DNA of 17,183 nt from Armatimonadota bacterium (GCA_964657535.1 CAZZVX010000038.1:2003-19185), one strand, 5' to 3'. Positions 1-17,183 are shown, numbered from the stretch's first letter. Made by a program: numbers and translations. The notes: generated from the sequence alone by a model not told the origin.

Positions 1-1179
1 CCTTCCCATCATGCGCCATCCGCTTTGGAGGCGGCGCAGTCCGCCCAAGCCTCGGCGGAGAGCGTCGCGGACGCCCTGACGGTCTCGGAACGGCAGTACC
101 GACGCCTGTTCGAGGCGGCCCGCGACGGCATCCTGCTCCTCGACAGCGACCAGGGCCGGATCACCGACGCCAATCCCTTCATGACGGAACTTCTGGGCTA
201 CTCCCACGCCGAACTGCTGGGCAAGGAGCTCTGGGAGATCGGACTTCTCCAGGATAAGGACGCAAGCCAGGAGGCTTTCCGGCGGCTGCAGCGCGATGAC
301 CACATCCGCTACGAGGACCTGCCGCTCCAGAACCGGCGGGGTGAGCGCCGTGAGGTGGAGTTCGTAAGCAACCTGTACCGCGAGAACGGACACACGGTCA
401 TCCAGTGCAACATCCGCGACATCACCGAGCGAAAGCGCGTAGCAGCGGAACTCGTCGTTGCCACTGCCAAACACGCGCATCAGGACGCCGTGCTGGAAGA
501 GCGCACCCGCCTGGCGCGGGAGATCCATGACACGCTGGCGCAAGGGTTCGCTGGGATCACCACGCAGTTGGAAGCGGCGGAGGCGGCGCTGGCGAACGTA
601 CCCCCATCGGCCTCACCCGACAGTCTTGCCGCCTCCCAAGACCAAGTCGCTGCCTACCAGGCGCAACTGAGCAAGGTCCAGGCCCGTATCGGCAAGGCGC
701 GTGACCTGGCCCGCGAGAGCTTGACCGAGGCAAGGCGGTCCGTCGCGGCACTGCGGTCACCGGCTCTGGAGGCGACCCCCTTGAGCGAGGCCCTCGCACG
801 TTTCCTCACGCAGCGTGTTCTGAACACGGAGGCAAAGAGCCGTTATGTGCTGGAAGGCGTCCCTCACGCGCTGCCCGCCAATGTCGAGCATTATCTGCTG
901 CGGATCGGTCAGGAGGCCATCACGAACGCCGTGGAACACGCGCAGGCCGAGGAGATCGACGTGGTGTTGTCTTTTGAGCCGGGGCGAGTGCGACTGCGCG
1001 TGCACGACGACGGGCGGGGATTCGACCTTCATCGTCCTGGCGCCGGGCGATTCGGAATCATCGGCATGCGGGAGCGAGCGGAGAAAGCCCAGGGACAGCT
1101 GACCATCATCAGCCATCAGGGGAAAGGGACGCAGGTAGACCTGATCGTGCCGATCCCCCAGGAGTCGCTCACAGACTGA
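1..1179 (+). CDS. Sensor histidine kinase, PAS domain + HisKA_3 dimerisation/phosphoacceptor + HATPase_c (NarL-type partner kinase). 5' end truncated by the window edge: the reading frame is open from nt 1 and the first in-frame start seen is a TTG at 25.
   Basis: The translation shows a PAS-like block (SERQYRRLFEAARDGILLLD...GKELWEIGL...REVEFVSNLYRENGHTVIQCNIRDITERKR). It shows an H-box typical of HisKA_3 (EERTRLAREIHDTLAQ). It shows an ATPase N/G-box region (RIGQEAITNAVEHA...RVHDDGRGFD...GRFGIIGMRERA). High GC3 codon bias. The stop TGA at 1177-1179 overlaps the next ATG by 1 nt. Confidence 0.85.
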   Translation, partial: PSHHAPSALEAAQSAQASAESVADALTVSERQYRRLFEAARDGILLLDSDQGRITDANPFMTELLGYSHAELLGKELWEIGLLQDKDASQEAFRRLQRDDHIRYEDLPLQNRRGERREVEFVSNLYRENGHTVIQCNIRDITERKRVAAELVVATAKHAHQDAVLEERTRLAREIHDTLAQGFAGITTQLEAAEAALANVPPSASPDSLAASQDQVAAYQAQLSKVQARIGKARDLARESLTEARRSVAALRSPALEATPLSEALARFLTQRVLNTEAKSRYVLEGVPHALPANVEHYLLRIGQEAITNAVEHAQAEEIDVVLSFEPGRVRLRVHDDGRGFDLHRPGAGRFGIIGMRERAEKAQGQLTIISHQGKGTQVDLIVPIPQESLTD

Positions 1180-1910
1180 TGCAAAGGCCATCAGACAGGA
1201 TGAACGCTCACACGCCCCACATGGAAAATGACGCTATGCTCACTGACAAGACTGCGGCACCCGCCGACGAAGGTGTGACTCCCGGCGCGAGCAGAATCCG
1301 CATCCTGATCGCGGACGACCATCCGGTCGTGCGCGACGGCCTGGCCGGGGTGATCGAGGAGCAGGACGACATGGCCGTGGTCGGGCAGGCCGCCACAGGT
1401 ACTGAGGCGCTCGCCCTCTACGGAGAGCAGTGCCCGGATGTGACTCTGATGGACCTGCGTATGCCGGGGATGAACGGCGTGGAGGCCATCACCGCGATCC
1501 GGCAGCAGGCCCCGGCGGCGCGCGTGATCATCCTAAGTACCTACGACGCCGAGGAGGACATCTACCGCGCCCTGCAGGCGGGGGCCAAAGCCTACTTGCT
1601 TAAGGATGTCGGTCGGCAGGTCCTACTGGAGACCATCCGCGCCGTCCACGCCGGCCAGACTCCGGTTTCCCCGGAGGTGGGGGCGAAAATGGCCGGCCGG
1701 ATCGGCTACGAGCAACTCAGCGACCGGGAACTGGAAGTGCTGCGTCTCCTGGTCAGAGGCATGAGCAACCAGGAGATCGCCGGGGCGCTCTTCATCGCGG
1801 AGAGCACGGTCAAGTTCCACGTCAACCATATCCTCGGCAAACTGAACGCCGCTGACCGCACGCAGGCGGTCATCACGGCGCTCAAACGCGGTCTTGCCAC
1901 CTTGCAGTAG
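1179..1910 (+). CDS. Response regulator, NarL/FixJ (LuxR-type HTH) family: REC domain + C-terminal LuxR HTH.
   Basis: REC signature RIRILIADDHPVVRDGL...VTLMDLRMPGMNGVEA...KAYLLKD. LuxR HTH LSDRELEVLRLLVRGMSNQEIAGALFIAESTVKFHVNHILGKLN. The start is ambiguous: ATG 1179 (TGATG overlap with the kinase stop, RBS-like CAGGAG upstream) or in-frame ATGs at 1200, 1221 and 1236. All keep the REC domain intact. Confidence 0.9.
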   Translation: MQRPSDRMNAHTPHMENDAMLTDKTAAPADEGVTPGASRIRILIADDHPVVRDGLAGVIEEQDDMAVVGQAATGTEALALYGEQCPDVTLMDLRMPGMNGVEAITAIRQQAPAARVIILSTYDAEEDIYRALQAGAKAYLLKDVGRQVLLETIRAVHAGQTPVSPEVGAKMAGRIGYEQLSDRELEVLRLLVRGMSNQEIAGALFIAESTVKFHVNHILGKLNAADRTQAVITALKRGLATLQ

Positions 1911-1929
1911 TGAACGCCCATCTCTGGCC

Positions 1930-2579: not shown

Positions 2580-2828
2580 TCAGCCCCGTTTTGTCTCAGG
2601 TTGCGGTGCCTGTTCCATCACCACCAGGCGGCGAACAATCAGTTCGTCTATTTCCAGTGAACGGATGCGAAATGTGCCGACGGCAAGCCGCCCGATAGCC
2701 ACTGCCCCGACCGCCAACGCGCCGATAGACACTACACCCACGGCAAACGCCCCGACGGCCAACGCCCCCGCCGAGGCGGCGCCGACAGAGCGTGTGTCCG
2801 CCTGCGGTTCTTCCAAATCATCCGGCAT
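2580..2828 (-). CDS. Small (82 aa) hypothetical protein. It has a hydrophobic Gly-every-5-residues repeat (GALAVGAFAVGVVSIGALAVGAVAIGRLAVG) followed by the charged tail FRIRSLEIDELIVRRLVV. Strand and start are uncertain.
   Basis: The minus-strand frame reads through a 15-bp tandem DNA repeat (2691-2795). An internal ATG (MPDDLEEP) is preceded by GGGGAA 7 nt upstream. The track ORF extends to 3011, but that N-terminal extension is R/M-rich and lower in GC. The + strand alternative 2665..2862 (TANAP low-complexity repeats) has no RBS and cannot be excluded. Confidence 0.35.
   Translation of the reverse strand: MPDDLEEPQADTRSVGAASAGALAVGAFAVGVVSIGALAVGAVAIGRLAVGTFRIRSLEIDELIVRRLVVMEQAPQPETKRG
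2691..2795. repeat. 15-bp tandem repeat, about 7 degenerate units, consensus roughly sCCGAyrGCCAACGC. It encodes the pentapeptide-period repeat in whichever strand is coding.
   Basis: Direct reading: cccgatagccactgc / cccgaccgccaacgc / gccgatagacactac / acccacggcaaacgc / cccgacggccaacgc / ccccgccgaggcggc / gccgacagagcgtgt. Confidence 0.75.
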
Positions 2829-3035
2829 GGAGTCGTTCCCCTGCAATATCGCGAGACACTGACGTCTTCGCATCGCCTGCCCGCACTTGCCCTCTGCCCA
2901 TTCACCGCGCTCAAGCATCAGCCGACGGGTCCGCATGAGAGAATGAAAGAGAGGAGTCATCCCATCGCTTGTGACTAACCCAATTTTACCAGGCAGGCGA
3001 TTGGGCGTCAACCGCCTAGGGTTGGGGAAATAACT

Positions 3036-3126
3036 GACCTTGAGGACGGCCTATGGGCTGTCCTTTTGTCGAGTTGAAAGCCGAACCCCAGACGGGCGAC
3101 AGGACAGACGCCACCTTCCATACTGT
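3036..3126 (+). promoter_or_regulatory. Copy A of a conserved intergenic module of about 90 bp, upstream of the DsbA-like/Usp operon. It contains TTGAGGA, the palindrome GGACGGCC-TATG-GGCTGTCC (3044-3063) + TTTTGT, the perfect 20-mer CCGAACCCCAGACGGGCGAC (3081-3100), and CCATACT (about 3118-3124).
   Basis: Aligns at about 80-85% with 12520-12625, with an identical 20-mer and compensatory changes that preserve the hairpin. It lies 40-80 bp upstream of ATG 3164 in a divergent intergenic region. Confidence 0.55.
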
Positions 3127-3163
3127 ATGTGCATCCATAGAGGAATGAAGATCGATTTTCACC

Positions 3164-3733
3164 ATGACAGAAGCGCCAGATGTGGGACCGAAATCACAAA
3201 TCGTAACGCTGGCCCCGCCGGTCGGTGAGCGTGATCACGCCCAGGGACCCGCCACGGCGGCCATCACCCTCGTCGAGTACGGCGACTACCAGGACCCGCA
3301 GTGCGCCGACGCCCAGCCCAGGATCAAAGCTCTTCAAGACCGAATGGGGGACCGGCTACGTCTGGTGTTCCGGCACTTCCCGGCGACCGGCCACTACCCG
3401 CACGCCGCCGAAGCGGCGGAGGCGGCGGGGCTGCAGGATCGGTTTTGGGCGATGCACGACACGCTCTTTGCGCACCAATCGGCCCTCGGCAATGGTCACT
3501 TGGTCGAATACGCGCACGACCTGGGCCTGGACATCAGCCGGTTCCTGCGGGATATGACCGGGCATGTGTCCGCCGAGCGCCTGCACGCGGATCGGGCCAG
3601 CGGCGCGCAGAGCGGCGTCCGGGACACGCCCGCGTTCTTCGTCAACGGAGTCCGGCAGCCTGGTCTTTGGGACGAGGCCGCCTTCTGGGCGGCTCTCGAA
3701 ACGGCCTGTGCAGAATATCTGAGCGGCGGGTGA
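3164..3733 (+). CDS. DsbA-like thioredoxin-fold protein (Thioredoxin_4/DSBA family). It is cytoplasmic (no signal peptide) and its active site is degenerate: DPQC instead of CxxC.
   Basis: LVEYGDYQDPQCADAQP aligns to the canonical F/Y-GDYQCPxC motif, with the first Cys replaced by Asp. A cis-Pro loop DTPAFFVNG is present. The stop at 3731-3733 lies 16 nt before the usp ATG, so the two genes are probably an operon. Confidence 0.8.
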   Translation: MTEAPDVGPKSQIVTLAPPVGERDHAQGPATAAITLVEYGDYQDPQCADAQPRIKALQDRMGDRLRLVFRHFPATGHYPHAAEAAEAAGLQDRFWAMHDTLFAHQSALGNGHLVEYAHDLGLDISRFLRDMTGHVSAERLHADRASGAQSGVRDTPAFFVNGVRQPGLWDEAAFWAALETACAEYLSGG

Positions 3734-3749
3734 TGGGAGGAGAGGGCAT

Positions 3750-4646
3750 ATGTTCAGCAGCATCTTACTTGCGTCGGACGGGTCGGAGTGCGCGCGCCGG
3801 GCGGCAGCCGTCGCCGCCGCGTTCGCCAACAAGTTCGGCGCTCGCCTGACGATCATCAACGTCTTCCACCCCGCGACCCTGTTTGCGCCTTACGGGAAGC
3901 CGCACGACCTGTTTGAATTCGGCTTCATCGAGAAACAGCAGGACAAGGCCCTAGAGGCCGTCTGCCGCATCGCCGATGGGAGCGACGTCGCCTACCAGGC
4001 ACGCCGGGAAAACGGCCAGCCGGCCGAAGAGATCGTGCGCGTCGCCGCCGAAGAAACGTGTGACCTCATCGTGATGGGCAGCCGGGGTTTGGGAGATGTC
4101 GGATCTCTGCTGCTCGGCAGCGTCTCGAACGCCGTCCTGCACCACGCCCACTGCCCGGTCCTGATTGTGCGAGAGGCCGGGGGAACGGCCGCAGGGAAAG
4201 AAGCGGCTGCCGAGGACACGTTTTCCAACATCCTGCTGGCGTCGGACGGGTCCGAGTGCGCGCTCAAAGCCGCCGAATTCGCCGGCGCGCTCGCAGGTAA
4301 GTTCGGCGCTCGCCTGACGATCATCAACGTCTTCCACCCGCCGCTCTACATCGCGCCCGATGGGGTGCCGGGCGGCTGGGAACCGAATGTCAGCGACATC
4401 GGCGACGACCAGGACGCCGCCGTCTGCTGCGCGGGCCGCGTCGTGGATGCTCAGAATGTGCCATATCTCCGCTGCAAGGAGATCGGGATTCCTGCCGCCG
4501 AGATCGTCCGTGTGGCCGAGGAAGAGGGCTGTGACCTGATCGTGCTGGGTAGCCGGGGCCTGAGCGGCATGAAGGCGTTCCTGCTGGGCAGCGTCTCCGA
4601 CGGCGTGGTTCACCATGCCCACTGCCCCACGCTGATCGTGAAGTGA
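3750..4646 (+). CDS. Tandem universal stress protein (two UspA domains, Rv2623-like architecture).
   Basis: Two repeats of the pattern ILLASDGSEC...ARLTIINVFHP...CDLIV(M/L)GSRGL...LLGSVS...VHHAHCP(V/T)LIV. The GSRG...G(S/T) region is the ATP-binding Usp motif. The RBS GGGAGGAGAGGG is upstream of ATG 3750. Confidence 0.9.
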   Translation: MFSSILLASDGSECARRAAAVAAAFANKFGARLTIINVFHPATLFAPYGKPHDLFEFGFIEKQQDKALEAVCRIADGSDVAYQARRENGQPAEEIVRVAAEETCDLIVMGSRGLGDVGSLLLGSVSNAVLHHAHCPVLIVREAGGTAAGKEAAAEDTFSNILLASDGSECALKAAEFAGALAGKFGARLTIINVFHPPLYIAPDGVPGGWEPNVSDIGDDQDAAVCCAGRVVDAQNVPYLRCKEIGIPAAEIVRVAEEEGCDLIVLGSRGLSGMKAFLLGSVSDGVVHHAHCPTLIVK

Positions 4647-4693
4647 CGTGAAGTGATCCGCCTGACCGTGAAGGGGCCGGAAAGGACAGTCCG

Positions 4694-5083
4694 ATGACAC
4701 AGCACAAACACAACAGGGCCGACGCCCGGATCCACGCGGGCGTGCGCCAGGAATTGCCCTGGGAGAGACGCGTGGATGAGGCCGAAGTGAAGGTGGCCCA
4801 GGGGCCTGGAATACGAGCCGTCGTGAATGGCCTCCGGTCTTGTAATCCTGTCTTTGTGTGCTTCCCGGAACAGAATGGTGCCGCAACGACAGACGACATG
4901 GAGACAGCAGAAGGCGTTCCGAGAGGCGAACGCCGGACCATGTGCGACGGCCCCGGCTGCCGCGCCGAGTCGGTGCAGGTCGACGGATGGCTCTTCGTGG
5001 GTCGTGGCGGGGAGCGCCGTCACTACTGCCGCGCGTGTCTGGTGTCATACCTGGACGGGCTTCGCGGGCCGTCGGCATCATAG
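4694..5083 (+). CDS. Hypothetical small protein (129 aa) with a C-terminal Cys4 zinc-ribbon-like motif (CDGPGC...CRAC). May be shorter, starting at the internal METAEG.
   Basis: The ORF has AAAGGA 8 nt upstream of its ATG. The C-x4-C...C-x2-C spacing is seen in the translation. GC3 is moderate to high. Several overlapping frames are open here, so the assignment is tentative. Confidence 0.35.
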   Translation: MTQHKHNRADARIHAGVRQELPWERRVDEAEVKVAQGPGIRAVVNGLRSCNPVFVCFPEQNGAATTDDMETAEGVPRGERRTMCDGPGCRAESVQVDGWLFVGRGGERRHYCRACLVSYLDGLRGPSAS

Positions 5084-5165
5084 ACCCGTAGGCCCTGAGT
5101 GCATCGCCGGGCCGAGGCCATGCGAACGGCACGATTGCCGTCGCTGAGAGAAGAAAGCCGATCCT

Positions 5166-6557
5166 ATGGACGCAACCGCAATCGCGGACCGTACCCATTT
5201 CGCCGCGCTGATCATGTTCCATTACCTGTTCCCGCCCGTGACCATCGGGCTGGGGGTGCTGATCGCCGTGCTCAAGGTGATGCAGCTGCGTCGCGGCGAG
5301 GGCTACGACGGTCTGCACGCACGGGCGGCCCGGTTCTGGGGCAGGCTGTTCCTGCTGAACTACGGGGCCGGCGTGGCGACCGGAGTGCCGATGGAGTTCC
5401 AGTTCGGCACCAACTGGGCGCGCTTCTCCACCATCTCCGGGGGCATCATCGGTCAGGGACTGATGATGGAGGGCCTGTTCGCGTTCTTCCTGGAGTCGGC
5501 GTTCCTGGCGGTCTTCCTCTTCGGGGAGCGGCGCGTCACCCCGAAGGTCCATACGCTCTCCGCCATTTTGGTCTCGCTCGGCTCGATCATCTCGGCCTAT
5601 TTTATCACGGCGACGGACGCCTGGATGCAGCACCCGGTTGGCTTCGCGCCGGGACCGGGCGGCGTCCTGCGCCTGACCAGCCTGACCGCCGTACTCACCA
5701 ACCCCTTCGAGGTCTGGGAGTACCTGCACACGGTCAACGGCGCGTTCGTTCACGGGGCGCTCGTCATGGGCGCTCTGGGGGCCTACTACCTGCTCGCCCG
5801 GAAGCACACGGAGTTCGCCCGCGTCACACTTGCCATCAGCCTGGTCTTCGGCCTGATCTTCTCCTTAACGCAGGTCTTCCCCACGGGGGCCAAGAACGGC
5901 GAGATGATCGTCAAATACCAGCCGACCACTCTGGCGGCCATGGAAGGGCAGTTCAAGAGCGAGCCGGGAGCGCCGCTGGCGATCATCGGTATGCCTGATA
6001 CCCAGAAAGGAAACCTGCTGGACCCGGTCGAAGTCCCCGGCCTGCTGTCCTACCTTGCCTACGGCAACGCCAAAGCGCCCGTCAAAGGCCTGAACGACAT
6101 CCCGCGCGGCCTGTGGCCGCCCGTCGAAATCGTCTACTACGCCTACCACATCATGATCTCGTTGGGCGGCTACTTCATCGCGCTGACGGCCCTGGGCGTG
6201 TTCCTGCTGTGGCGGCGGAAACTCGAAGCGGCGCGCTGGTACCTGTGGGCGTTGATGCTCTCGCTGCCGCTGCCTTACATCGCCAACGAGGCCGGCTGGG
6301 TGGTGACGTGCGTCGGCCGCCAGCCCTGGATCATATACGGCGTCCTGCGGACGGCCCAGGGGTACTCGCCGAACGTCTCGTCCGGCGAGGTCATCTTCAC
6401 CCTCCTCGGCTTCACCGGCATCTACATCGCCCTCGGCCTGCTGTTCGTGTTCCTTGTCTTGAAGCTCATCGCGCAGGGGCCGGAGGAGGCGCAGCCGGAG
6501 GGGCCGGGACAGCCCCTCCCGACGGGCGAGCCTCTTCGGCAGGAGGCGCTGGTATGA
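5166..6557 (+). CDS. cydA: Cytochrome bd ubiquinol oxidase subunit I.
   Basis: 463 aa multi-TM protein with the conserved CydA N-terminus (HFAALIMFHYLFPPVTIGLGVL) and Q-loop region. The RBS GAGAAGAAAG is upstream. The stop overlaps the cydB start (ATGA). Confidence 0.92.
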   Translation: MDATAIADRTHFAALIMFHYLFPPVTIGLGVLIAVLKVMQLRRGEGYDGLHARAARFWGRLFLLNYGAGVATGVPMEFQFGTNWARFSTISGGIIGQGLMMEGLFAFFLESAFLAVFLFGERRVTPKVHTLSAILVSLGSIISAYFITATDAWMQHPVGFAPGPGGVLRLTSLTAVLTNPFEVWEYLHTVNGAFVHGALVMGALGAYYLLARKHTEFARVTLAISLVFGLIFSLTQVFPTGAKNGEMIVKYQPTTLAAMEGQFKSEPGAPLAIIGMPDTQKGNLLDPVEVPGLLSYLAYGNAKAPVKGLNDIPRGLWPPVEIVYYAYHIMISLGGYFIALTALGVFLLWRRKLEAARWYLWALMLSLPLPYIANEAGWVVTCVGRQPWIIYGVLRTAQGYSPNVSSGEVIFTLLGFTGIYIALGLLFVFLVLKLIAQGPEEAQPEGPGQPLPTGEPLRQEALV

Positions 6558-7600
6558 ATGGAGGCGGCATGACGCACGACTGGCTGAACACCGCCTGGTT
6601 CGTTGTCCTCGGCGCGTTGCTGATCGGCTATGCCATCCTGGACGGCTTCGATCTGGGAATCGGGACGCTGCACTTTGTTCTGGGCCGGAGCGGCGCGGAG
6701 CGGCGCACGAGCCTGGATGTCATCGGCCCCTTCTGGTTCGGCTATGAGGTCTGGCTCCTGGTGGCGGGCGGCTCGATGGTCGCGGCGTTCCCCCGCCTGT
6801 ACGCGGCGAGTTTCAGCGGCTTCTACCTGGTGCTGATGGTCGTCCTGTGGCTGCTCATCGGGCGGGGAACGGCCATCGAGTTCCGCTCCCAGGTCGCCGA
6901 CCCGCTGTGGCGCGGCTTCTGGGACTTCGCCTTCTGCGCCAGCAGCTTTCTTCTGGCCGTGCTGTTCGGCGCGGCGGTCGGAAACGTGGTTCGGGGCGTG
7001 CCGCTGGACGCTTCGGGGAATTTCCAGGGATCATTCACACTCGCCCTGAACCCATTCGCCATCCTCGTCGGCCTCCTCAGCGCCGCGCTGCTGGCGATGC
7101 ATGGGGCGAACTATCTCGCCTTCAAGACGGAGGGCGCCCAGCAGGGGCAGGCGCGGCTGTGGGCGCGGCGACTCGGACCGGTGGTCGCCGTCCTCGCCAT
7201 CCTCGCGACGGTGTCCGCGTTCTTCGTCCGGGGCGGCCTCGGGGCGAACTTCGCCCGCCACCCGTTCCTGCTCGGCCTGCCCCTGCTGGCCGTGGTCGCT
7301 TTCGTCGTAATGTCCCTGTCCCAGCGCCGGGCCGAGGACGGCCGGGCCGTCGGCGCGGGGGCCGTCTTCCTGGCCGCACTGATGGGGTCGGCAGGGGCTG
7401 GCCTGTATCCGTTACTGCTGCCGACACTTGGGCAGTCGGGGCAGGGACTGTCGGCCTTCAACTCCTCCGCGCCCCGTCACACACTGGAAACGGCCCTCGT
7501 CGTCAATGTGGTGATGATGGGCATCGTGATCGCCTACAACCTTTACATCCATCGCGTCTTCCGTGGCGCCGTGCGCGGGCTGGGCGAACACGGACACTGA
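6554..7600 (+). CDS. cydB: Cytochrome bd ubiquinol oxidase subunit II.
   Basis: The translation [39 protein letters not shown] shows the CydB N-terminal signature. A GGAGG precedes an alternative in-frame ATG at 6569. The track ORF 6113..7600 is an upstream out-of-context extension that overlaps cydA. Confidence 0.9.
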   Translation: [348 protein letters not shown]

Positions 7601-7604
7601 ATAG

Positions 7605-7633
7605 CCCTCGCGGCAATAGAGGCCCGCCGAGGG
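7605..7633 (+). terminator. GC-rich imperfect hairpin directly after the cydB stop. Possible U-tract-less intrinsic terminator.
   Basis: ccctcgcggc-aataga-ggcccgccgaggg. Followed by an A-rich rather than T-rich segment. Confidence 0.25.
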
Positions 7634-7658
7634 ATTGAGAAAGAACAAGGACACAACC

Positions 7659-8992: not shown

Positions 8993-9024
8993 CGCCTGCA
9001 AGACTCAAGTGGTGGGAGCGGGCT

Positions 9025-9480
9025 GTGAGACGGGGGCATCCCGTTTCGCCCGCGATAGAGAAATGCGGCCGGAATGAAGACTGGAAAACAGAAGTGACGA
9101 CTGGAATCAGCAGGGATGGAATCAGGAACGATGGCTTCAAAAGCCACGGCGGGAGGAATGGGGGCCGGGGCGATGAGGACAGACATCCCGATCTGACGGT
9201 CTCCGTGTTCCTCCGGACCGACTTGGTGCGAAGCCTGGAAGCACACGCGGAGAAGGACAGGCCGGGGACGATCCCGGCAGCACTTGAGGAGCGGATACGG
9301 TCACTGTACCCCGGCGCGGTGGTCTCGGTGCAAGTGATCCCCCTCCTCGACAGCGAGTGGGAGGTCCAGATCGGCGAGATGGGTCGGAGCCGAATGGGTG
9401 GTGCCGACCGCGAGGTTATTGAGCGGCGCCTGCGGTCGGTGGTCGAGGAGGCCGTCACCCGGTTCCGTGGGCCAGCCTGA
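9025..9480 (+). CDS. Hypothetical protein. The start is uncertain (GTG 9025 with GGGAG upstream, or in-frame GTGs at 9094 and 9205). The conserved-looking core is the C-terminal about 90 aa.
   Basis: The C-terminal part (TVSVFLRTDLVRSLEAHAEK...VVSVQVIPLLDSEWEVQIGEMG...VVEEAVTRFRG) has high GC3. The N-terminal 60 codons are low-complexity and lower in GC, and may be non-coding. The stop lies 11 nt before the VIT gene RBS. Confidence 0.35.
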   Translation: MRRGHPVSPAIEKCGRNEDWKTEVTTGISRDGIRNDGFKSHGGRNGGRGDEDRHPDLTVSVFLRTDLVRSLEAHAEKDRPGTIPAALEERIRSLYPGAVVSVQVIPLLDSEWEVQIGEMGRSRMGGADREVIERRLRSVVEEAVTRFRGPA

Positions 9481-9491
9481 GAGGAAAACAG

Positions 9492-10190
9492 ATGCCTCAG
9501 ACCCCGCACGTTGAGAAACACTTCACGTCCACGGAAGCCGTCCGCGACATCGTGATCGGGATGTCGGACGGCCTGACCGTGCCGTTCGCCCTCGCCGCCG
9601 GACTGACCGGCGTCGTCGCCGCCTCGCACATCATCGTCACGGCGGGACTCGCCGAAGTCGCCGCCGGCTCCATCGCGATGGGCCTGGGCGGCTACCTGGC
9701 GGCGCGGGGCGACGCGGAGCATTACGCCAGCGAGCGGAAGCGGGAGCAGCGCGAGGTCCAGACCCTGCCAGACGTGGAGGCGCGCGAAGTCGCTGAGGTC
9801 TTTCAGTCCTACGGGCTGACAGCCGAAGAAAGCGCCCCGCTGGTGGCGGCCCTGCAGCAGAGGCCCGAAGCCTATGTGGACTTCATGATGCGGTTCGAGC
9901 TGGGCCTGGAAGAACCGGACCCGAAGCGCGCCCTGACCAGTGCGCTGACCATCGCCGGGGCCTACGTCACGGGCGGCCTCATCCCGCTCTGCCCGTACTT
10001 CCTGCTGCGGCAGGCGCACACCGCGCTGCTCTGGTCCGTCTTCGTGACTCTAGCGGCGTTGGTCGTGTTCGGCTTCTTCAAGGCGCGGGCCACGGGCGCT
10101 GCGCCTGTCCGGGGGGCCGTGCAGACTGTCGTGATCGGCGGCCTCGCAGCCGCTGCGGCTTTTCTGATCGCGCGGTTGTTCTCAGGTTGA
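9492..10190 (+). CDS. VIT1/CCC1-family (vacuolar iron transporter-like) Fe/Mn transporter.
   Basis: The translation shows an N-terminal cytoplasmic region, a DGLTVPFALAAGLTG helix, a central acidic linker and C-terminal TM helices, as in PF01988. The RBS GAGAGGAAAACAG is upstream. Confidence 0.85.
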   Translation: MPQTPHVEKHFTSTEAVRDIVIGMSDGLTVPFALAAGLTGVVAASHIIVTAGLAEVAAGSIAMGLGGYLAARGDAEHYASERKREQREVQTLPDVEAREVAEVFQSYGLTAEESAPLVAALQQRPEAYVDFMMRFELGLEEPDPKRALTSALTIAGAYVTGGLIPLCPYFLLRQAHTALLWSVFVTLAALVVFGFFKARATGAAPVRGAVQTVVIGGLAAAAAFLIARLFSG

Positions 10191-10293
10191 GACCGTGGGC
10201 AGCGAAGTGCGTCACGCCTCGCTGCGGGAACTGAAACAAAATGCAAACGATGAGTGCGGACGTCTTCGACAGCGATCCGCCCGGAGAGCCGAC

Positions 10294-11316
10294 ATGAAAG
10301 CAATGGTCCTACTTAAACCCGGCCCTGTGGAGAATACCCCCCTGCGGCTCCTGGAACTGCCCAGGCCCGATCCGGGACCGGGCGAGGTTCTGATCCGGGT
10401 CGAGGTCTGCGGCGTCTGCCGGACCGATCTGCACGTCGTCGAGGGCGAACTGACCCCGCACTTGCAGCCGATCATCCCCGGACATGAGATCGTCGGGCGC
10501 GTCGCGGAACGTGGCCCGGATGCGCAGCGCTTCGCCGAGGGCGACCGGGTCGGCGTCGCCTGGCTGGGCGGCACGGACGGCGCCTGTCCCTACTGCCTGC
10601 GCGGCGACGAGAACCTCTGCGACGCCCCCGCGTTCACGGGCTATGACCGCAACGGCGGCTATGCTGAATACGCGGTCGCCCGCGAAGACTTTGTCTACCC
10701 GCTGCCGGGGGAAGTCTCTTCCCGCGAGGCCGCCCCGTTCCTGTGCGCCGGCATCATCGGCTACCGGGCGCTGCAGCGGGCGGAACTTCCGGCGGGGGAA
10801 CCATTGGGTCTGTACGGCTTCGGCGCGTCCGCTCACATCCTGATCCAAATCGCCCGCCATCAGGGCAGCGATGTCTATGTCTGCACGCGCGAACCGCGCC
10901 ACCAGGCGCTCGCCCGCGAACTCGGCGCGGCTTGGGCCGGCGGGGCCGACGAGATGCCGCCGATCAAACTGCGGAGCAGCATCCTCTTCGCGCCCGCCGG
11001 CCCGCTCGTCCTGCCCGCCCTGGCTGCCCTGGATAAAGGCGGGACGCTGTCCCTGGCCGGTATCTACATGACGCCGATTCCCGAAATGGATTACCACAAA
11101 TATCTGTTCCGAGAACACAGCCTCCGCAGCGTCACAGCCAACACGCGCCGGGACGGACACGCCTTGCTCCAACTCGCCGCCGAGATCCCTTTGCACGCAC
11201 AGACGACGGAGTTTCCTCTCGGACAGGCCAACGAGGCCCTCCAGGCCCTCAAGCACGACGAGATCAGCGGCGCGGCCGTCCTCCGCGTCTTTACCCCAGT
11301 CGAGAGCGATCCATGA
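10294..11316 (+). CDS. Zinc-dependent alcohol dehydrogenase (MDR superfamily).
   Basis: CGVCRTDLHVVEGE and GHEIVGRV catalytic-Zn motifs. A structural-Zn Cys cluster C-x2-C-x...C. A GxGxxA cofactor loop LYGFGASAH. The RBS GGAGAG is 5 nt upstream. The stop overlaps the next ATG (ATGA). Confidence 0.9.
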   Translation: MKAMVLLKPGPVENTPLRLLELPRPDPGPGEVLIRVEVCGVCRTDLHVVEGELTPHLQPIIPGHEIVGRVAERGPDAQRFAEGDRVGVAWLGGTDGACPYCLRGDENLCDAPAFTGYDRNGGYAEYAVAREDFVYPLPGEVSSREAAPFLCAGIIGYRALQRAELPAGEPLGLYGFGASAHILIQIARHQGSDVYVCTREPRHQALARELGAAWAGGADEMPPIKLRSSILFAPAGPLVLPALAALDKGGTLSLAGIYMTPIPEMDYHKYLFREHSLRSVTANTRRDGHALLQLAAEIPLHAQTTEFPLGQANEALQALKHDEISGAAVLRVFTPVESDP

Positions 11317-12461
11317 CTTTGTCCACGACACGACCAACATCGCCCACTCCCCGAAACCTCAGCCGCCGCCGGTTCCTCGCGGCTGCCGCCGCCGTGGGAA
11401 CGACTGCCGCGCTCGGCGACGCCCTGGTGACGTATGCGCCCTGGCTGGACTATAACGCGCAGGTGCGGCGGACCTGGGACACCCCGTTCCAAACGAAGGC
11501 GACCGTGACTACACAAATGCGGGAACTCGTCCGTTATGCGACACTCGCCCCCAGCGGGCATAACACGCAGCCCTGGAAATTTATGATCCTTGAGGGAGCG
11601 GTCCGCATCCTTCCCGACTACTCCCGGCATCTGCCGGTGATCGACCCGCTGGGCCGTGAACTCTGGATCAGCCTGGGGTGCGCCCTGGAAAACATGGAGA
11701 TTGCGGCGCAGAACGCGGGGTACGGAACAGAGATCACCTACCCGACTCAGGACGCGGACTTTCTCACTCTCCACCTGCGAACGATGCCTGTCCGCAGCCC
11801 CGCCCCTCTTGCGGACGCGATTCCCCACCGACAAAGCACTCGCTCCCCGTATGACGGACACGCGGTCCCACTCGCGGAGATGCGAAAGATCGAGAACACG
11901 GTACCTGTGCCGGGCGTCTCGCTACAGATTCTGACGGCCTCCGACCAGAAAGAGGCCGTCATTGAGTACATCAAATCAGCCGATCAACGCCAGTACGGCA
12001 ATCAAGCCTTCGTGAACGAGTTGGTCTCCTGGCTTCGCTTCAACAAACCGGAAGCGCTGCATAGTCTGGATGGCTTGTATACGCACTGTTCCGGCAACCC
12101 GGAAATCCCGCGCTGGCTGGGAGAGAGATTTATCACAACCGCCAGCGCCGGGCGGCAAAGTGCGACAGATGAGACGAACGTCCGCAGCTCGTCCGGCCTC
12201 ATCGTGATCGCCGCCGCGCAGGACGACAAACGCCATTGGATCGAGACCGGGCGGCTGTACGAACGTCTTGCTCTTACCATAACATCCCTCGGCATCAAGA
12301 CGGCGTTCATCAACCAGCCGTTGGAGGTCCCCGCCCTGCGCTCCCAGTTCCAGGGATACCTGAACCTCGGCACGGCGCAACCGCAGCTGCTTCTGCGATT
12401 CGGATACGCGGCCCCGATGCCGCGCTCCCTGCGGCGTCCCGTCGAGCAGGTCCTTGCCTGA
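11313..12461 (+). CDS. Tat-signal nitroreductase-family protein (Acg/Rv2032-like putative nitroreductase).
   Basis: Twin-arginine motif SRRRFLAAAAAVGTTAALG at the N-terminus. Nitroreductase-like blocks (ATLAPSGHNTQPW, LGCALENM). Translationally coupled to the alcohol dehydrogenase. Confidence 0.85.
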   Translation: MTLSTTRPTSPTPRNLSRRRFLAAAAAVGTTAALGDALVTYAPWLDYNAQVRRTWDTPFQTKATVTTQMRELVRYATLAPSGHNTQPWKFMILEGAVRILPDYSRHLPVIDPLGRELWISLGCALENMEIAAQNAGYGTEITYPTQDADFLTLHLRTMPVRSPAPLADAIPHRQSTRSPYDGHAVPLAEMRKIENTVPVPGVSLQILTASDQKEAVIEYIKSADQRQYGNQAFVNELVSWLRFNKPEALHSLDGLYTHCSGNPEIPRWLGERFITTASAGRQSATDETNVRSSSGLIVIAAAQDDKRHWIETGRLYERLALTITSLGIKTAFINQPLEVPALRSQFQGYLNLGTAQPQLLLRFGYAAPMPRSLRRPVEQVLA

Positions 12462-12482
12462 TCCCGGCGTGATGACCAGGAC

Positions 12483-12507
12483 GCCGCCGCAAGGCAGTCG
12501 GTTTTTT
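12483..12507 (+). terminator. Weak hairpin followed by a T6 tract, 20 nt after the nitroreductase stop. Candidate intrinsic terminator of the adh-nitroreductase operon.
   Basis: gacgcc-gccgcaa-ggcagtc (stem with 1-nt bulge), then gg-tttttt (12502-12507). Confidence 0.35.
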
Positions 12508-12519
12508 CCTAGCCGAAAG

Positions 12520-12625
12520 TTGAGGAAGCAGCCTGATCTGAAGGACAGCCTACAGGCTGTTCATTTGTCTTGCTGAAATCCGAACCCCAGACGGGCGACG
12601 GAACTGCCGCCACCCCCCATACTTG
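12520..12625 (+). promoter_or_regulatory. Copy B of the conserved module, upstream of the BON-domain gene. It contains TTGAGGA, the palindrome GGACAGCC-TACA-GGCTGTTC (12543-12562) + ATTTGTCTTG, the identical 20-mer CCGAACCCCAGACGGGCGAC (12580-12599), and CCATACT (12617-12623).
   Basis: See copy A. It lies about 110-190 bp upstream of ATG 12737. It is preceded by a separate weak hairpin + T6 tract (12483-12507) that probably terminates the adh-nitroreductase operon. Confidence 0.55.
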
Positions 12626-12736
12626 GAACGGTGGATCACCCTCCATCAATGGATTCCATTAGACATGGGCCGCGGGAACGCAGGCACCGCAACGCAGGGT
12701 CCTTTCAACTTAAGCCTGCCAAAGAGGTTAATGACT

Positions 12737-13390
12737 ATGACGAGTGATTCTCAACTACAGAGTGATGTTCTGGCGGAGCTGCAGTGGCAGCCCAGCGTGA
12801 ACGCGGCACACATCGGAGTCGCCGCGAAAGAAAACGTCGTGACTCTCACGGGCCAAGTCGCCCACTACGCGGAAAAGTCAGCGGCGGAAGAGGCGGCCAT
12901 AGGCGTCTACGGTGTCAAGGCCGTCGCCAACGACATCCAGGTCGAACTGTTTGGCATAGGTCGTCGTACCGATCAGGACATCGCGCAGGCGGCACTCAGC
13001 GCCCTGGACTGGGACTTCGAGGTGCCGACGGACAAGGTCAAAGTCGTCGTGAAGGACGGCCACGTCATCCTGGAAGGCAATGTGGACTGGCAATACCAGA
13101 AAGACGCTGCCAAGCGCTGCGTCCAGTACCTGATGGGCGTCACGGCGGTGAGCAACCTGATCGCCATTGAGCCAAAGGTGAAGTGGGCTGACGTCCAGGC
13201 TGAGATCGAAGGCGCGTTCCGCCGCAGCGCGGACCTGGACGCCAGGCGGATCGGGGTCGACACCTATGCCGGCACGGTGACGCTGAGCGGGACGGTCTCT
13301 TCCTGGGCTGAGCGGGACGAAGCCGTGACGGCCGCCTGGGGCGCACCGGGCGTGACCTCCGTCAATGACCAGCTCGCAGTCGCTTATTAA
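12737..13390 (+). CDS. BON-domain protein (OsmY-like, two BON repeats).
   Basis: Repeated BON pattern (VTLTGQVAHYAEKSAAEEAA..VKAVANDIQV and VILEGNVDWQYQKDAAKRCVQYLMGVTAVSNLI..., then VTLSGTVSSWAERDEAVTAAWGAPGVTSVNDQL). The RBS AAAGAGG is 9 nt upstream of ATG 12737. An ATG at 12731 is an alternative. Confidence 0.8.
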   Translation: MTSDSQLQSDVLAELQWQPSVNAAHIGVAAKENVVTLTGQVAHYAEKSAAEEAAIGVYGVKAVANDIQVELFGIGRRTDQDIAQAALSALDWDFEVPTDKVKVVVKDGHVILEGNVDWQYQKDAAKRCVQYLMGVTAVSNLIAIEPKVKWADVQAEIEGAFRRSADLDARRIGVDTYAGTVTLSGTVSSWAERDEAVTAAWGAPGVTSVNDQLAVAY

Positions 13391-13399
13391 CGCAGTCCT

Positions 13400-13511: not shown

Positions 13512-13940
13512 ATGTTCTCCAACATCTTATTGGCCGCGGACGGATCGGCGTGCGCGCTCCGGGCCGCCTCCGTGGCCGCGGGCTTGGTGAACCGGTTCGC
13601 GGCGCGGCTGACTCTCATCAACGTCTTTGAGCCGTTTCCGAGCATCGAGCCTTACGGGGACACCGTCGAAGCCGGCCTGGACCATCAGCGCGTCGCGGCT
13701 TTGCAAGAAAGCGCGATTTCTGACACGGGCCGCGTTGTGACTGAGAGGGACGTCTCCTATGAGAGCCGCCGCGAAGTCGGCCATCCCGCTGTTGAGATCG
13801 TCCGCGCGGCCGAGGAACGAGGCTGTGACCTGATCGTCATCGGCGGGCGGGGCCAGAGCGCCGTCCCGTCGTTCCTGCTCGGCAGCGTCTGCGACCGCGT
13901 GGCCCACCACGCCCGCTGCCCCGTGCTGATCGTCAAGTGA
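13512..13940 (+). CDS. Universal stress protein (single UspA domain), paralogue of the domains of the tandem Usp at 3750.
   Basis: MFSNILLAADGSACALRAA...ARLTLINVFEP...CDLIVIGGRGQS...LLGSVCDRVAHHARCPVLIVK. It shares the 3' flank tccgcctga with the 3750 gene. Confidence 0.9.
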   Translation: MFSNILLAADGSACALRAASVAAGLVNRFAARLTLINVFEPFPSIEPYGDTVEAGLDHQRVAALQESAISDTGRVVTERDVSYESRREVGHPAVEIVRAAEERGCDLIVIGGRGQSAVPSFLLGSVCDRVAHHARCPVLIVK

Positions 13941-14007
13941 TCCGCCTGATCATGACATGAGCGAAAGTCTGGCTCTTCGCACAGGTGCATCGCAGAAGGG
14001 AGTTCCA

Positions 14008-14985
14008 ATGAAATCGACGAGTTCTTTATCGGTACTGGTATTTATTGTCATCCTGGGCGCCGGCCTCGGAATATCCTTCGCCATGCGCGGCGCTTCACTG
14101 CACTGGCCGAGCATCGCAGCCGGCGTGCTGGCGTTCATCCTGGCGACGGTCGTGTCTTCGGCAGTTCAAGTTGCCAATCAGTGGGACAAGGCGGTGGTCC
14201 TGCGCATGGGGCGTTTCCAGGCGCTGCGCGGTCCGGGCCTGTTCTTCATCGTCCCGGTTGTGGACGCAATTGCTTACTGGATCGACACGCGGGTGATCAC
14301 GATGTCGTTCAAGGCAGAGAAGACGCTCACCAAGGATACGGTGCCGGTGGACGTGGACGCCGTCCTGTTCTGGAAGGTCCTGGACCCGCAAAAGGCGGCC
14401 CTGGACGTGGCGGACTACCAGGCGGCTGTCGGCTGGGCGTGCCAGACGGCCCTGCGCGACGTTATCGGCAAGACGATGCTCGCGGATATGCTGGAGGGCC
14501 GGGACCAGATCAGCGCGCAGTTGCAGAAGATTATCGATGTGCGCACGGAACCCTGGGGCATCACGGTCATCTCCGTGGAAGTCAAGGACGTCCTGATCCC
14601 GCCTTCGCTGGAGAGTGCGATGTCTATGCAGGCTCAGGCGGAGAGGGAGCGGCAGGCGCGTGTGATCCTGGGCGACTCGGAGCGTCAGGTGGCAGAGAAG
14701 TTTGGGGAGGCGTCTAAGACCTATGCCAACAACCCAGTGGCCTTCCACCTGCGGGCGATGAATATGCTCTACGAAGGCTTGAAGCAAAACTCAACCATCG
14801 TGATCGTCCCAAGCACGGCGGTGGAGTCCATGCAGCTCGGCGGTCTGGCCGGCCTCACCGCGCTGACGATGGGGATCGGGCAGGAAAGCGCGAAACGCGA
14901 GCCGATCCTGCCGCTGTCTGGTGCGGAAGCCCCCACGCCGACGGGGAACGGATTGACTTCAACAAACGGCGTTGGTTCAACATAA
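14008..14985 (+). CDS. SPFH/band-7 (stomatin/prohibitin-like) membrane protein.
   Basis: N-terminal TM segments. PHB-domain core (WDKAVVLRMGRFQALRGPGLFFIVPVVDAIAYWIDTRVITMSF...DVDAVLFWKVLDP). A C-terminal coiled-coil-like region (AQAERERQARVILGDSERQVAEKFGEA). The RBS GGGAG is upstream of ATG 14008. Confidence 0.88.
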   Translation: MKSTSSLSVLVFIVILGAGLGISFAMRGASLHWPSIAAGVLAFILATVVSSAVQVANQWDKAVVLRMGRFQALRGPGLFFIVPVVDAIAYWIDTRVITMSFKAEKTLTKDTVPVDVDAVLFWKVLDPQKAALDVADYQAAVGWACQTALRDVIGKTMLADMLEGRDQISAQLQKIIDVRTEPWGITVISVEVKDVLIPPSLESAMSMQAQAERERQARVILGDSERQVAEKFGEASKTYANNPVAFHLRAMNMLYEGLKQNSTIVIVPSTAVESMQLGGLAGLTALTMGIGQESAKREPILPLSGAEAPTPTGNGLTSTNGVGST

Positions 14986-15014
14986 ATCATAAAGACGCAC
15001 GAGGAGTATAACAA

Positions 15015-17183
15015 ATGAACGTACCCACTTTAGCGCCGGATATACAGTACCCAAACGGCAGCCGCGATCAGGAAATTACCCCTCAGCCAGGGACTCTGAA
15101 CCCGGATGAACTGCGTCGGACTGATGCCTACTGGCGGGCCGCCAACTACCTGTCGGTCGGCCAGATATACCTGTACGACAACCCGCTGCTGAAGCGGCCT
15201 CTGGCGCTCACGGACGTCAAGCATATGCTGCTGGGACACTGGGGGACGACGCCCGGACAGAACTTCATCTACACCCACCTGAACCGGGTCATCAAGAAGT
15301 ACGACCTGGATATGATCTACGTCTCCGGCCCCGGACACGGCGGCCCCGCCGTCGTGAGCGGCACGTACCTGGAAGGCACCTACAGCGAGGTCTATCCCAA
15401 CATCAGTCAGGACGAGGCCGGTCTGCGCAAACTGTTCAAGCAATTCTCGTTCCCCGGCGGCATCCCCAGCCACGCCTCGCCGGAGACGCCCGGCTCGATC
15501 CATGAGGGCGGCGAACTGGGCTATTCGCTTAGCCATTCGTTCGGGGCCGTGTTCGACAACCCCGAACTCGTCGTCGCCTGCGTCGTCGGCGACGGCGAGG
15601 CGGAGACCGGGCCGCTCGCCACGGCCTGGCACTCCAACAAGTTTTTGGACCCCGTCACCGACGGCGCGGTGCTGCCCATTTTGCACCTCAACGGCTACAA
15701 AATTTCCAATCCGACCCTGCTGGCCCGCATCAGCCGCGAGGAACTGGAACAACTGCTGCGCGGCTACGGGTGGACGCCGTATTTCGTGGAGGGCCATGAA
15801 CCGGACCGGATGCACGAGGCGATGGCCGCGACTCTTGATACGGCGGTGGCGCAGATTAAACAAATCCAGCAGGACGCCCGCAGTCAAGGGAACACGACGC
15901 GCCCGCACTGGCCGATGATCGTATTGCGTTCCCCCAAAGGCTGGACGGGGCCGAAGATGGTAGATGGCCTGCAAGTAGAAGGCACCTTCCGCGCGCACCA
16001 GGTGCCGCTTTCCGACCCGGCCACCCACCCCGAACACCTGGCACTGCTGGAAGAGTGGCTGCGGAGCTATCGGCCTGAAGAACTCTTCAACGCGGAGGGC
16101 CACCTGCTGCCGGAACTGGCCGAACTCGCACCGACGGGCGAGCGGCGCATGGGCGCGAACCCGCACGCCAACGGCGGCCTCCTGCTGCGCGACCTGCGGA
16201 TGCCGGACTTCAACGACTACGCGCTCCCTGTGCCGACGCCGGGGGCCGGCGGCCCCGGCGACACGCACATTCTGGGCAGGTTCCTGCGCGATGTGGTGAA
16301 ACTGAACGACGCGCAGAAGAACTTCCGCGTCTTCGGCCCGGACGAGACGCTGTCCAACGGACTGGAAGCGCTGTTCGAGGCGACCGAGCGCCAGTGGGAC
16401 GCGGCGACCGCGCCGAACGACGAATGGCTCGCGCCGACGGGCCGCGTGATGGAGGTGCTGAGCGAACACCAGTGCGAGGGCTGGCTGGAAGGCTACCTGC
16501 TCACCGGGCGGCACGGGCTGTTCAACTGCTATGAGGCGTTCATCCACATCGTGGACTCGATGTTCAACCAGCACGCCAAGTGGCTGAAGGTGACGTCGCG
16601 CCTGCCGTGGCGGCGGCCCATCGCGAGCCTCAACTACCTGCTGGCCTCGCACGTCTGGCGTCAGGACCACAACGGCTTCACCCATCAAGACCCCGGCTTC
16701 CTGGACCACGTCGTCAACAAAAAGGCTGAAGTGGTGCGCGTCTACCTGCCGCCGGACGCTAACTGCCTGCTGTCGGTGATGGACCACTGCCTGCGCAGCC
16801 GCCACTACGTCAATGTCGTGGTCGCGGGCAAGCACCCCGCGCCGCAGTGGCTGACGATGGATGCCGCCGTCAAGCACTGCACCGAGGGCATCGGCATCTG
16901 GCAGTGGGCGAGCAATGACCAGGAAGCCGAACCCGACGTGGTCATGGCCTGCTGCGGCGACGTGCCGACGCTGGAGACGCTCGCTGCCGTCTCGATCCTG
17001 CGCGAGCGCCTGCCCGACTTGAAGGTGCGGGTGGTCAACGTCGTGGATCTGATGCGGCTTCAGCCGCAGACCGAACACCCGCACGGCCTGAGCGACAGGG
17101 ACTTCGACGGGCTGTTCACCACGAACAAGCCGGTCATCTTCGCCTTCCACGCCTACCCCTGGCTGATCCACCGGCTGACCTAC
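15015..17183 (+). CDS. xfp: Xylulose-5-phosphate/fructose-6-phosphate phosphoketolase (TPP-dependent), 3'-truncated by the window end (723 codons present, no stop).
   Basis: The + strand frame is open from ATG 15015 to the window end, with RBS GAGGAG upstream. The translation contains phosphoketolase signatures ([62 protein letters not shown]). It is absent from the supplied track only because it has no stop. The 713-aa minus-strand ORF 15030..17171 is its antisense shadow. Confidence 0.9.

Follow-up and report, generated by a model that had tools for sequence, protein, structure and literature searches.

The described systems closest to the locus reported here are the DosS/DosT–DosR system of Mycobacterium tuberculosis, the OsdK/OsdR island of Streptomyces coelicolor and the lxa locus of Burkholderia cenocepacia, together with general stress regulons such as those of sigma-B and PhyR–EcfG. 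DosS and DosT carry tandem GAF domains with haem in the first, and 20-bp Dev boxes mark the targets of DosR (DevR). Papers on the DosR regulons of M. avium and M. abscessus do not mention cytochrome bd, phosphoketolase or alcohol/lactate dehydrogenase. The motif of the OsdR island (SCO0167–SCO0219) is a 16-nt palindrome, AGGGCCGATCGGCCCT (PMC5069765). The lxa locus, which is non-actinobacterial, has a role in anoxic persistence (PMC3721108). The present analysis concerns 17,183 nt of DNA from an Armatimonadota bacterium (GCA_964657535.1, CAZZVX010000038.1, positions 2003–19185). This whole stretch is referred to as the window, and positions are counted from its first base. It holds the genes of a PAS-domain histidine kinase and a NarL-family response regulator and, beyond them, an island of stress-related genes in which a conserved cassette, about 92 nt long, was found twice.

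A preliminary description of the window, made from the sequence alone, had listed the island genes, flagged two intergenic regions (3012–3163 and 12462–12736) as regulatory candidates and proposed a DosR-like hypoxia or dormancy island under the local two-component system. All of the listed genes proved to be real and to lie on the + strand in Pfam and NCBIfam checks. Both intergenic regions remain good candidates, since each carries one copy of the same conserved cassette. On balance, we lean towards reading the locus as a stress-survival island of two operons, each headed by this lineage-specific cassette, with the adjacent two-component system as controller.

Cassette anatomy

A repeat search of the window gave a direct repeat of 91 nt with 80% identity (3034–3124 and 12533–12623), the two copies of which fall inside the two flagged intergenic regions. 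Copy 1 (3034–3124, + strand) was recovered as a direct repeat, as a pattern match, in alignments A1 and A2, by nhmmer (E = 2e-22) and through the consensus hairpin. It consists of a hairpin core (3044–3063) followed by TTTTGT, a conserved block (3069–3095), GCGACA (3096–3101) and CATACT (3119–3124), and the start of a DsbA-like gene lies 40 nt downstream. Copy 2 (12532–12623, + strand) was recovered by direct repeat, pattern, alignment, profile, consensus hairpin and terminator scan. It has a hairpin core (12543–12562) followed by ATTTGT, then GCGACG (12595–12600) and CATACT (12618–12623), and the start of a BON gene follows after about 114 nt. The profile search gave no third cassette in the window.

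The anatomy of the cassette was read from alignment A2. Over about 92 nt it comprises a hairpin with a T-run, a conserved block of fixed length and a promoter-like part of the form GCGACA-17 nt-(C/T)ATACT. The hairpin is an extended palindrome, (A)AAAGGACAGCC-N4-GGCTGTCCTTTT(G), and its 13 pairs (−19.6 kcal/mol) form the sole consensus RNA structure of the cassette in RNAalifold. One-sided changes in the stem favour G–U pairs (14, versus three A–C/C–A), which fits a hairpin in the RNA of the + strand; UNCG loops were present in seven of 22 hairpins. A GC-rich hairpin followed by TTTTG, with pairing kept on the transcribed strand, fits a predicted intrinsic terminator, and the terminator scan flags 12543–12562.

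Three copies in relatives have an altered hairpin and an intact promoter part. In Capsulimonas corticalis (L001, 14027–14118) the palindrome is everted (CCTGTCC-TTAA-GGACAGG) and the T-run is lost; in locus L064 the 5′ arm is absent from one copy (12024–12109) and a compensatory GGACGG/CCGTCC stem is found in another (13698–13790). The hairpin palindrome was also considered as the operator of the regulator. This was weakened by its generic use as a terminator, by copies in which an arm is missing or the stem is everted or compensated, and by the G–U bias.

The conserved block spans a fixed 25 nt from the T-run to GGCGAC (about −60 to −26) and has several near-invariant positions. The promoter-like part follows as GGGCGACAG, a 17-nt unconserved spacer and (C/T)ATACT, and conservation stops right after this box. 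GGCGAC and ATACT are invariant and 19 nt apart (17 nt between the hexamers), both motifs being imposed by the search pattern. GCGACA scored 4/6 and (C/T)ATACT 4–5/6, below the threshold of a simple promoter scan. We interpret this part as a putative core promoter of the sigma-70 type with a weak −35 element (GCGACA) and a good −10 element. For nearly all cassette copies listed, a co-directional open reading frame (ORF) starts within about 160 nt.

Other readings of the cassette were tried. Spacings for sigma-54 (GG-N15-GC, not N10) and for an ECF-type sigma factor (GAAC-N10-CGAC, not N16–17) did not fit when compared by eye. A second inverted repeat, apparent in some copies at about −58 to −39, seemed promising but was not consistently kept. 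A riboswitch or leader was rejected, given the position of the hairpin ahead of the promoter-like part, the lack of conservation in the 17-nt spacer and the absence of any other conserved structure. A known RNA family was ruled out for the cassette because an Rfam search of the whole window (E ≤ 1) gave nothing at the cassettes.

Distribution and linkage to the two-component genes

Copies from the window, from relatives and from C. corticalis were used to derive the pattern AGGACNG-N44/45-GGCGAC-N17-YYATACT. It matched the window twice, versus no match in 200 shuffles. Three relatives have this element in the interval between the regulator gene and the DsbA-like gene. In C. corticalis two further copies precede a PRC-barrel gene and an SPFH gene, respectively, making three copies in all. 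A scan of one genome per species (185,579 species) gave 23 matches. Fourteen of these were in metagenome-assembled genomes (MAGs) of Armatimonadales, all with full-length conservation; two of the 14 came from a bin labelled Janthinobacterium. The other nine, from other phyla, had nothing in common beyond the imposed bases and were treated as chance. Across the reference genomes the cassette was confined to this lineage. A profile search over 19 related loci (228 kb in total) gave 28 copies that each covered 75 or more profile positions.

At all ten orthologous kinase/regulator loci with an intact regulator (the window, L001, L003, L005, L014, L017, L023, L024, L059 and L064) a cassette comes immediately behind the regulator gene or behind the membrane-protein gene that follows it. 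The window departs from this layout: there, about 1.1 kb with two inverted minus-strand ORFs separates the regulator gene from the cassette downstream. The island had been described as lying immediately downstream of the two-component genes; this is exact for the relatives and inexact for the window, where the ORFs 1930–2541 and 2580–3011 intervene. The 4.38-Mb Capsulimonadaceae chromosome OZ255823.1 contains only two copies of the strict pattern, both of which head consecutive operons adjoining the kinase and regulator genes, the same architecture as in the window. Kinase paralog loci at 45% identity have neither a cassette nor a stress island, and the locus with a truncated regulator (L004) has neither a cassette nor stress genes.

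At L004 (10001–11692) the kinase ortholog is 81% identical and the regulator gene ends after the receiver domain; the contig has only 4× coverage and an assembly error is possible. Fragments of the regulator C-terminus (27–34 aa) were observed at L015 4314–4415 and L027 5152–5232, on cassette-bearing contigs with no full regulator nearby, and the L027 fragment is just upstream of a cassette. This hints that the 3′ end of the regulator gene may have been carried along when cassettes were copied. The contigs L012 and L024 (JBPBQB010000104.1 and JBPBQB010000216.1) belong to a MAG labelled Janthinobacterium lividum and carry a Capsulimonadaceae cassette, kinase and regulator; they probably reflect mis-binning or contamination.

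Sensor kinase and response regulator

The sensor histidine kinase (25–1179, + strand) has PAS, HisKA_3 and HATPase_c domains in Pfam. It has one PAS domain, no GAF domain and no transmembrane segment, and is predicted to be cytoplasmic. The reading frame is open up to base 1 of the window. The protein is identical to a database protein of 384 aa, and its orthologs of 390–415 aa have the same single-PAS architecture, so that the earlier call of PAS rather than tandem GAF domains stands. In the structure-database ranking, the kinase cores of VraS and DesK came out as its best solved relatives. Orthologs with 67–83% identity are found in C. corticalis and in MAGs of Capsulimonadaceae and Armatimonadales. 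Judged by these orthologs, the island host is a member of the Capsulimonadaceae, phylum Armatimonadota, far from Actinobacteria.

The response regulator (1179–1910, + strand) belongs to the NarL/FixJ family, with Response_reg and GerE helix-turn-helix domains in Pfam. A kinase with HisKA_3 and HATPase_c domains thus adjoins a receiver–GerE regulator, as is typical of NarL/FixJ two-component systems, and the receiver residues DD, D, T and K and the H-box histidine of the kinase are visible in the translations. Among solved structures in the PDB, VraR (1.5e-46), ChrA and NarL (2e-37) ranked ahead of DevR (3c3w), which came eighth (E = 1.7e-31), and the regulator reached no NCBIfam equivalog cut-off. 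By this ranking it is a generic NarL-family protein and not DevR-like in particular. The recognition helix ESTVKFHV.H is nearly invariant across eight orthologs, as expected if the orthologous regulators read one conserved motif. Co-variation of this helix with cassette subfamilies was also considered and was powerless, the helix being almost invariant.

In C. corticalis the two-component system is flanked by two PAS–SpoIIE (PP2C) phosphatase genes (L001, 8399–9952 and 16846–18081). The PAS domain of the window kinase is 61–67% identical to the PAS domains of both phosphatases, and PP2C genes are present in the islands of L001, L003, L005 and L064. This suggests that one signal may feed two types of output, the kinase and the PAS–PP2C phosphatases.

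Genes behind the cassettes

The first genes behind the cassette copies encode DsbA-like proteins (five), NAD(P)H-binding/NmrA-like proteins (four), PRC-barrel proteins (three) and short-chain dehydrogenases/reductases (SDRs; three). The others are universal stress proteins (Usp), BON, SPFH, a twin-arginine catalase, DUF308/HdeD, a TPR protein, muconolactone-isomerase-like proteins, an alpha/beta hydrolase and the membrane protein mentioned above. Farther along the operons lie genes for YflT, PP2C, CydAB, SulP–STAS, Zn-dependent alcohol dehydrogenase (Zn-ADH), P-type ATPase, 2-hydroxyacid dehydrogenase, VIT1 and phosphoketolase. The overlap with the window comprises CydAB and Zn-ADH in L003, SPFH in L001, a Usp–BON–small ORF–2-hydroxyacid dehydrogenase–VIT1 series in L020 and 2-hydroxyacid dehydrogenase followed by phosphoketolase in L059. 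Cytochrome bd, the dehydrogenases and phosphoketolase are prominent in the window genome and only partly common to the relatives. Because cassettes precede catalase, PRC-barrel, DUF308/HdeD, SDR, NmrA-like and DsbA-like genes in relatives, the whole looks like a general stress regulon with low-oxygen cargo in the window genome. This points away from a hypoxia-specific regulon, and hypoxia is only a candidate signal.

The window has a G+C content of 60–69%. The genes of the first predicted operon, all on the + strand, begin with a DsbA/Thioredoxin_4 protein (3164–3733, Pfam), a tandem Usp with two Usp stretches (3750–4646, E = 1e-67) and an ORF of 129 aa without a family match (4694–5083). Next come adjacent genes for both subunits of cytochrome bd, CydA (5166–6557; PF01654, E = 1e-142) and CydB (about 6554–7600; PF02322, E = 9e-82). 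A D-isomer 2-hydroxyacid dehydrogenase (7635–8669, Pfam) follows. It had been called a D-lactate-type dehydrogenase; the family assignment was retained, while the D-lactate specificity is unproven, no NCBIfam equivalog cut-off being reached. A small ORF of 80 aa (8750–8992) has no Pfam or NCBIfam match and a good ribosome-binding site, and recurs at 46–68% identity in the islands of four relatives (L001 18289–18465, L003 14524–14733, L020 2582–2752 and L064 16652–16870). It looks like a conserved, uncharacterised component of the island. An ORF of 151 aa (9025–9480), like that at 4694–5083, has neither a family match nor a tblastn match in the related loci, and both are regarded as putatively coding only. 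The operon continues with VIT1 (9492–10190, Pfam) and Zn-ADH (10195–11316; TIGR02822, 422 bits versus a cut-off of 283). It ends with an Acg-family FMN oxidoreductase with a twin-arginine motif (11313–12461; NF047509, 298 bits versus a cut-off of 199).

The second predicted operon (+ strand) contains genes for a three-BON protein (12737–13390), a Usp (13512–13940) and an SPFH protein (13957–14985), all by Pfam, and a phosphoketolase gene (15015 to beyond 17183; Pfam and translation) that is incomplete at the window end. In the first, the intergenic gaps are all at most 82 nt and the terminator scan flagged no site in the gene gaps between 3164 and 12461, the next site in a gap being at 12543. 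The window is accordingly divided into two putative operons (3164–12461 and 12737 to beyond 17183) on the lack of terminator-like gap sites in the first and of a third cassette in the window; the extent of the second is based on its short intergenic gaps.

Signal peptides of the twin-arginine type are present in the Acg-family protein (SRRRFLAAAAAVG) and also in a catalase that is encoded behind a cassette in L023 (6065–8000). Mycobacterial Acg proteins are presumably cytoplasmic, and export of an Acg-family protein would be unusual. Between the regulator gene and the island, on the minus strand, lie a gene for a 203-aa membrane protein (1930–2541), with a weak, sub-threshold IspA-like Pfam match (24.8 bits), and the ORF 2580–3011. 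The membrane-protein gene is inverted and not obviously part of the regulon within the window; its homologs in L014, L024 and L064 run in the same direction as the regulator gene, the one in L014 directly behind a cassette. A promoter-like, near-consensus TTGACG-17-TAAAAT (minus strand, 3011–2983) is located inside the 5′ end of ORF 2580–3011, the true start of which is probably later, around 2828 (MPDDLEE...). From there the ORF would give a small Gly/Ala/Val-rich hydrophobic product that matches no family and is without homologs in the related loci. A minus-strand ORF at 15030–17171 was rejected as a gene, being a shadow of the phosphoketolase gene. The only Rfam match in the window, a sub-threshold one to ASdes, a mycobacterial small RNA, inside the SPFH gene (14270–14328, + strand; 26.8 bits versus a gathering cut-off of 40, E = 0.019) is likely to be due to chance.

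Proposed mechanism and alternative explanations

The hairpin would insulate each operon from upstream transcription and so make it dependent on its own promoter. The cytoplasmic PAS kinase would sense a cue inside the cell (for example redox state, oxygen or energy status) and phosphorylate the NarL-type regulator, which may bind the promoter-proximal conserved block (about −60 to −26) and recruit RNA polymerase to the promoters with weak −35 elements. Induction would provide high-affinity respiration by cytochrome bd, NAD+-regenerating dehydrogenases and phosphoketolase, together with the protective Usp, Acg-type FMN, BON, SPFH, VIT1 and DsbA-like proteins. The predicted co-regulation of the operons 3164–12461 and 12737 to beyond 17183 is well supported, because they share a cassette that is known in 28 copies, is linked to the kinase/regulator pair at ten of ten loci and is restricted to the lineage. 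Control of the island by the adjacent two-component system, as the preliminary description had also proposed, is plausible. The cassette linkage makes a good circumstantial case for the island as a unit tied to this system; direct control is an inference.

Several observations weigh against this reading. Six of the ten linked loci were retrieved through the kinase, so that the linkage partly reflects retrieval; this bias is limited, because L014, L017, L023 and L024 came from the DNA pattern scan of reference genomes. No cassette precedes the kinase gene in the relatives, which gives no sign of autoregulation. No clear dyad operator could be defined in the −60 to −26 block, and binding of the regulator to the cassette is putative. 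A metagenome scan with the palindrome only gave 34 loci, of which 33 were A-tract/hairpin/T-tract sites in unrelated, often low-GC or gut organisms and one was a full cassette. As those 33 matches have no promoter part, the hairpin is best taken as a generic terminator rather than a specific operator. The PP2C (SpoIIE) phosphatases with very similar PAS domains in the islands of relatives point to a second signalling route, and the −10 element C(T/C)ATACT resembles what we take to be promoters for stress sigma factors (E. coli sigma-S type). Insofar as a purely low-oxygen signal is meant, the catalase, SDR and NmrA-like cargo of the relatives also disagrees with it.

In the main rival explanation the cassette is a general stress promoter under an alternative or group-2 sigma factor; PAS–PP2C partner-switching phosphatases might feed this factor, and the two-component system would be a co-located member or an upstream input rather than the direct activator. 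It is not separable from the two-component model computationally; we nevertheless regard it as rather unlikely. The first genes behind the relatives' cassettes are a classic general-stress set with YflT genes in the same islands, and PP2C genes are present in L001, L003, L005 and L064, the PAS domains in C. corticalis being 61–67% identical to that of the kinase. The −35 region reads GGGCGACAG without variation and is non-canonical, and the C at −8 of the −10 element is likewise invariant. However, no gene for a sigma factor, an anti-sigma factor or a STAS anti-anti-sigma factor of a partner-switching system was seen in any of the related loci (8–21 kb), and in all ten orthologous loci the cassette and the regulator gene go together. 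The hexamers and their 17-nt spacing fit a primary-type sigma factor, and a weak −35 element is the usual signature of activator dependence. This last property also bears on a second alternative, in which a duplicated terminator with a constitutive or housekeeping promoter has spread by recombination as a 'gene-cassette spacer' and the clustering reflects co-selection or mobility with no dedicated regulator: a −35 element so far from consensus makes strong constitutive activity unlikely. The similarity of the two window copies even in the variable spacer suggests a recent duplication or gene conversion, the regulator C-terminus fragments (27–34 aa) lie upstream of some copies and the cargo differs strongly between genomes, all of which would suit such spreading. 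Yet that cargo is consistently stress-related, and the invariant positions are kept in orthologous copies upstream of the DsbA-like gene, across species with proteins of only 61–73% identity, where the spacer and flanks have diverged. Because these positions persist while their surroundings diverge, specific bases of the cassette appear to be under purifying selection, and we consider the spacer explanation improbable.

Descent of the whole from Actinobacteria, as a true DosS/DosR or OsdK/OsdR ortholog with its regulon and a specific response to hypoxia, NO or CO, is largely refuted by the sequence and strikes us as very improbable. Genes for Usp, a tandem Usp and an Acg-family FMN oxidoreductase do adjoin a NarL-family two-component system, both domains of the tandem Usp can be aligned to Rv2623 (with E = 4e-13 only), and the OsdR island, too, has Zn-ADH, Usp proteins and a nitroreductase. 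Against this, the kinase has one PAS and no GAF domain, DevR is merely the eighth-best solved relative of the regulator and the conserved cis-element differs in sequence and architecture. The Dev box (TTSGGGACTWWAGTCCCSAA) was absent from the window, including the intergenic regions, both as a core (at most one mismatch) and as a 20-mer (at most four mismatches). The OsdR box was absent from the window at up to three mismatches and from the intergenic regions at up to four.

A bolder form of the favoured two-component reading is possible, and we put it forward tentatively. The cassette would be a modular, self-insulating unit of terminator and activator-dependent promoter, copied before interchangeable stress genes and controlled by the PAS kinase/NarL pair, with the PAS domain shared with PP2C phosphatases. 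This would be the first regulon that can be inferred for Armatimonadota and an independent analogue of the DosR and OsdR islands. If the PAS signal is indeed shared, two-component and phosphatase outputs driven by one cue would amount to a stress or dormancy switch. We know of no experimentally characterised gene regulation in Armatimonadota, and literature searches gave nothing relevant for this lineage. The locus offers a concrete, testable regulon, with a cis-element conserved at base level, candidates for the sensor and the regulator, and C. corticalis as a relative in culture.

Comparison with known systems

The locus resembles the DosS/DosT–DosR system in that a NarL-family regulator and a HisKA_3-type kinase adjoin the putative target genes, in that two Usp genes (one tandem) and an Acg-family FMN oxidoreductase are present and in that the targets have a common conserved upstream element. 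The relative L003 carries a SulP/STAS transporter and a P-type cation ATPase, which we take to recall Rv1739c and CtpF. The differences lie in the sensor (a single PAS domain, whereas DosS and DosT have tandem GAF domains with haem), in the regulator, to which VraR and NarL are at least as close as DevR, and in the cis-element, a 92-nt terminator-plus-promoter cassette instead of 20-bp boxes. There is no sign of autoregulation here, and the phylum is Armatimonadota. The window cargo adds cytochrome bd, phosphoketolase, BON, SPFH, VIT1 and the DsbA-like protein, and that of the relatives adds catalase, PRC-barrel and SDR genes. The mirroring of the DosR regulon seen in the preliminary description thus extends to Usp, tandem Usp and Acg and does not extend to the regulator, the kinase, the boxes or the respiratory and fermentative cargo. 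Gene content alone is insufficient for a DosR-like label in annotation.

Like the OsdK/OsdR island of S. coelicolor, the locus has a NarL-family two-component system surrounded by genes for Usp, Zn-dependent alcohol dehydrogenase and nitroreductase, together with a common upstream motif, which in the OsdR island is about 80–100 nt before the start codons (PMC5069765). The two-component systems are not orthologous and the associated metabolic genes differ. The lxa locus of B. cenocepacia likewise has several Usp genes, a nitroreductase, a Zn-binding alcohol dehydrogenase, a sulphate transporter, a cation ATPase, two-component systems and a common promoter motif (PMC3721108). Its upregulated regulators include CRP/FNR-type (Anr-related) proteins besides two-component systems. 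It differs further in motif, gene order and phylum, and is backed by expression data, whereas the window island is known from its sequence.

The sigma-B regulon of Bacillus and the PhyR–EcfG regulon of Alphaproteobacteria have similar cargo (catalase, Usp, BON/OsmY, PRC-barrel, YflT, SDR and HdeD-like proteins) and one conserved promoter type before many small stress operons. PAS–PP2C phosphatases are found nearby, as is presumably the case for RsbP in the sigma-B system. The cassette hexamers do not match what we take to be the sigma-B and EcfG consensus sequences and, unlike these regulons, the window island is headed by a NarL-type two-component system. The design in which a NarL-type two-component system adjoins Usp, Acg and fermentative or respiratory back-up genes, known from Mycobacterium, Streptomyces and Burkholderia, extends to a distant phylum. 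It has arisen in Armatimonadota with an unrelated sensor and unrelated operators, which bears on the evolution of dormancy and persistence programmes. By its sensor, regulator and cis-element, the island is an analogue of the DosR and OsdR islands rather than a member of the DosR/OsdR family.

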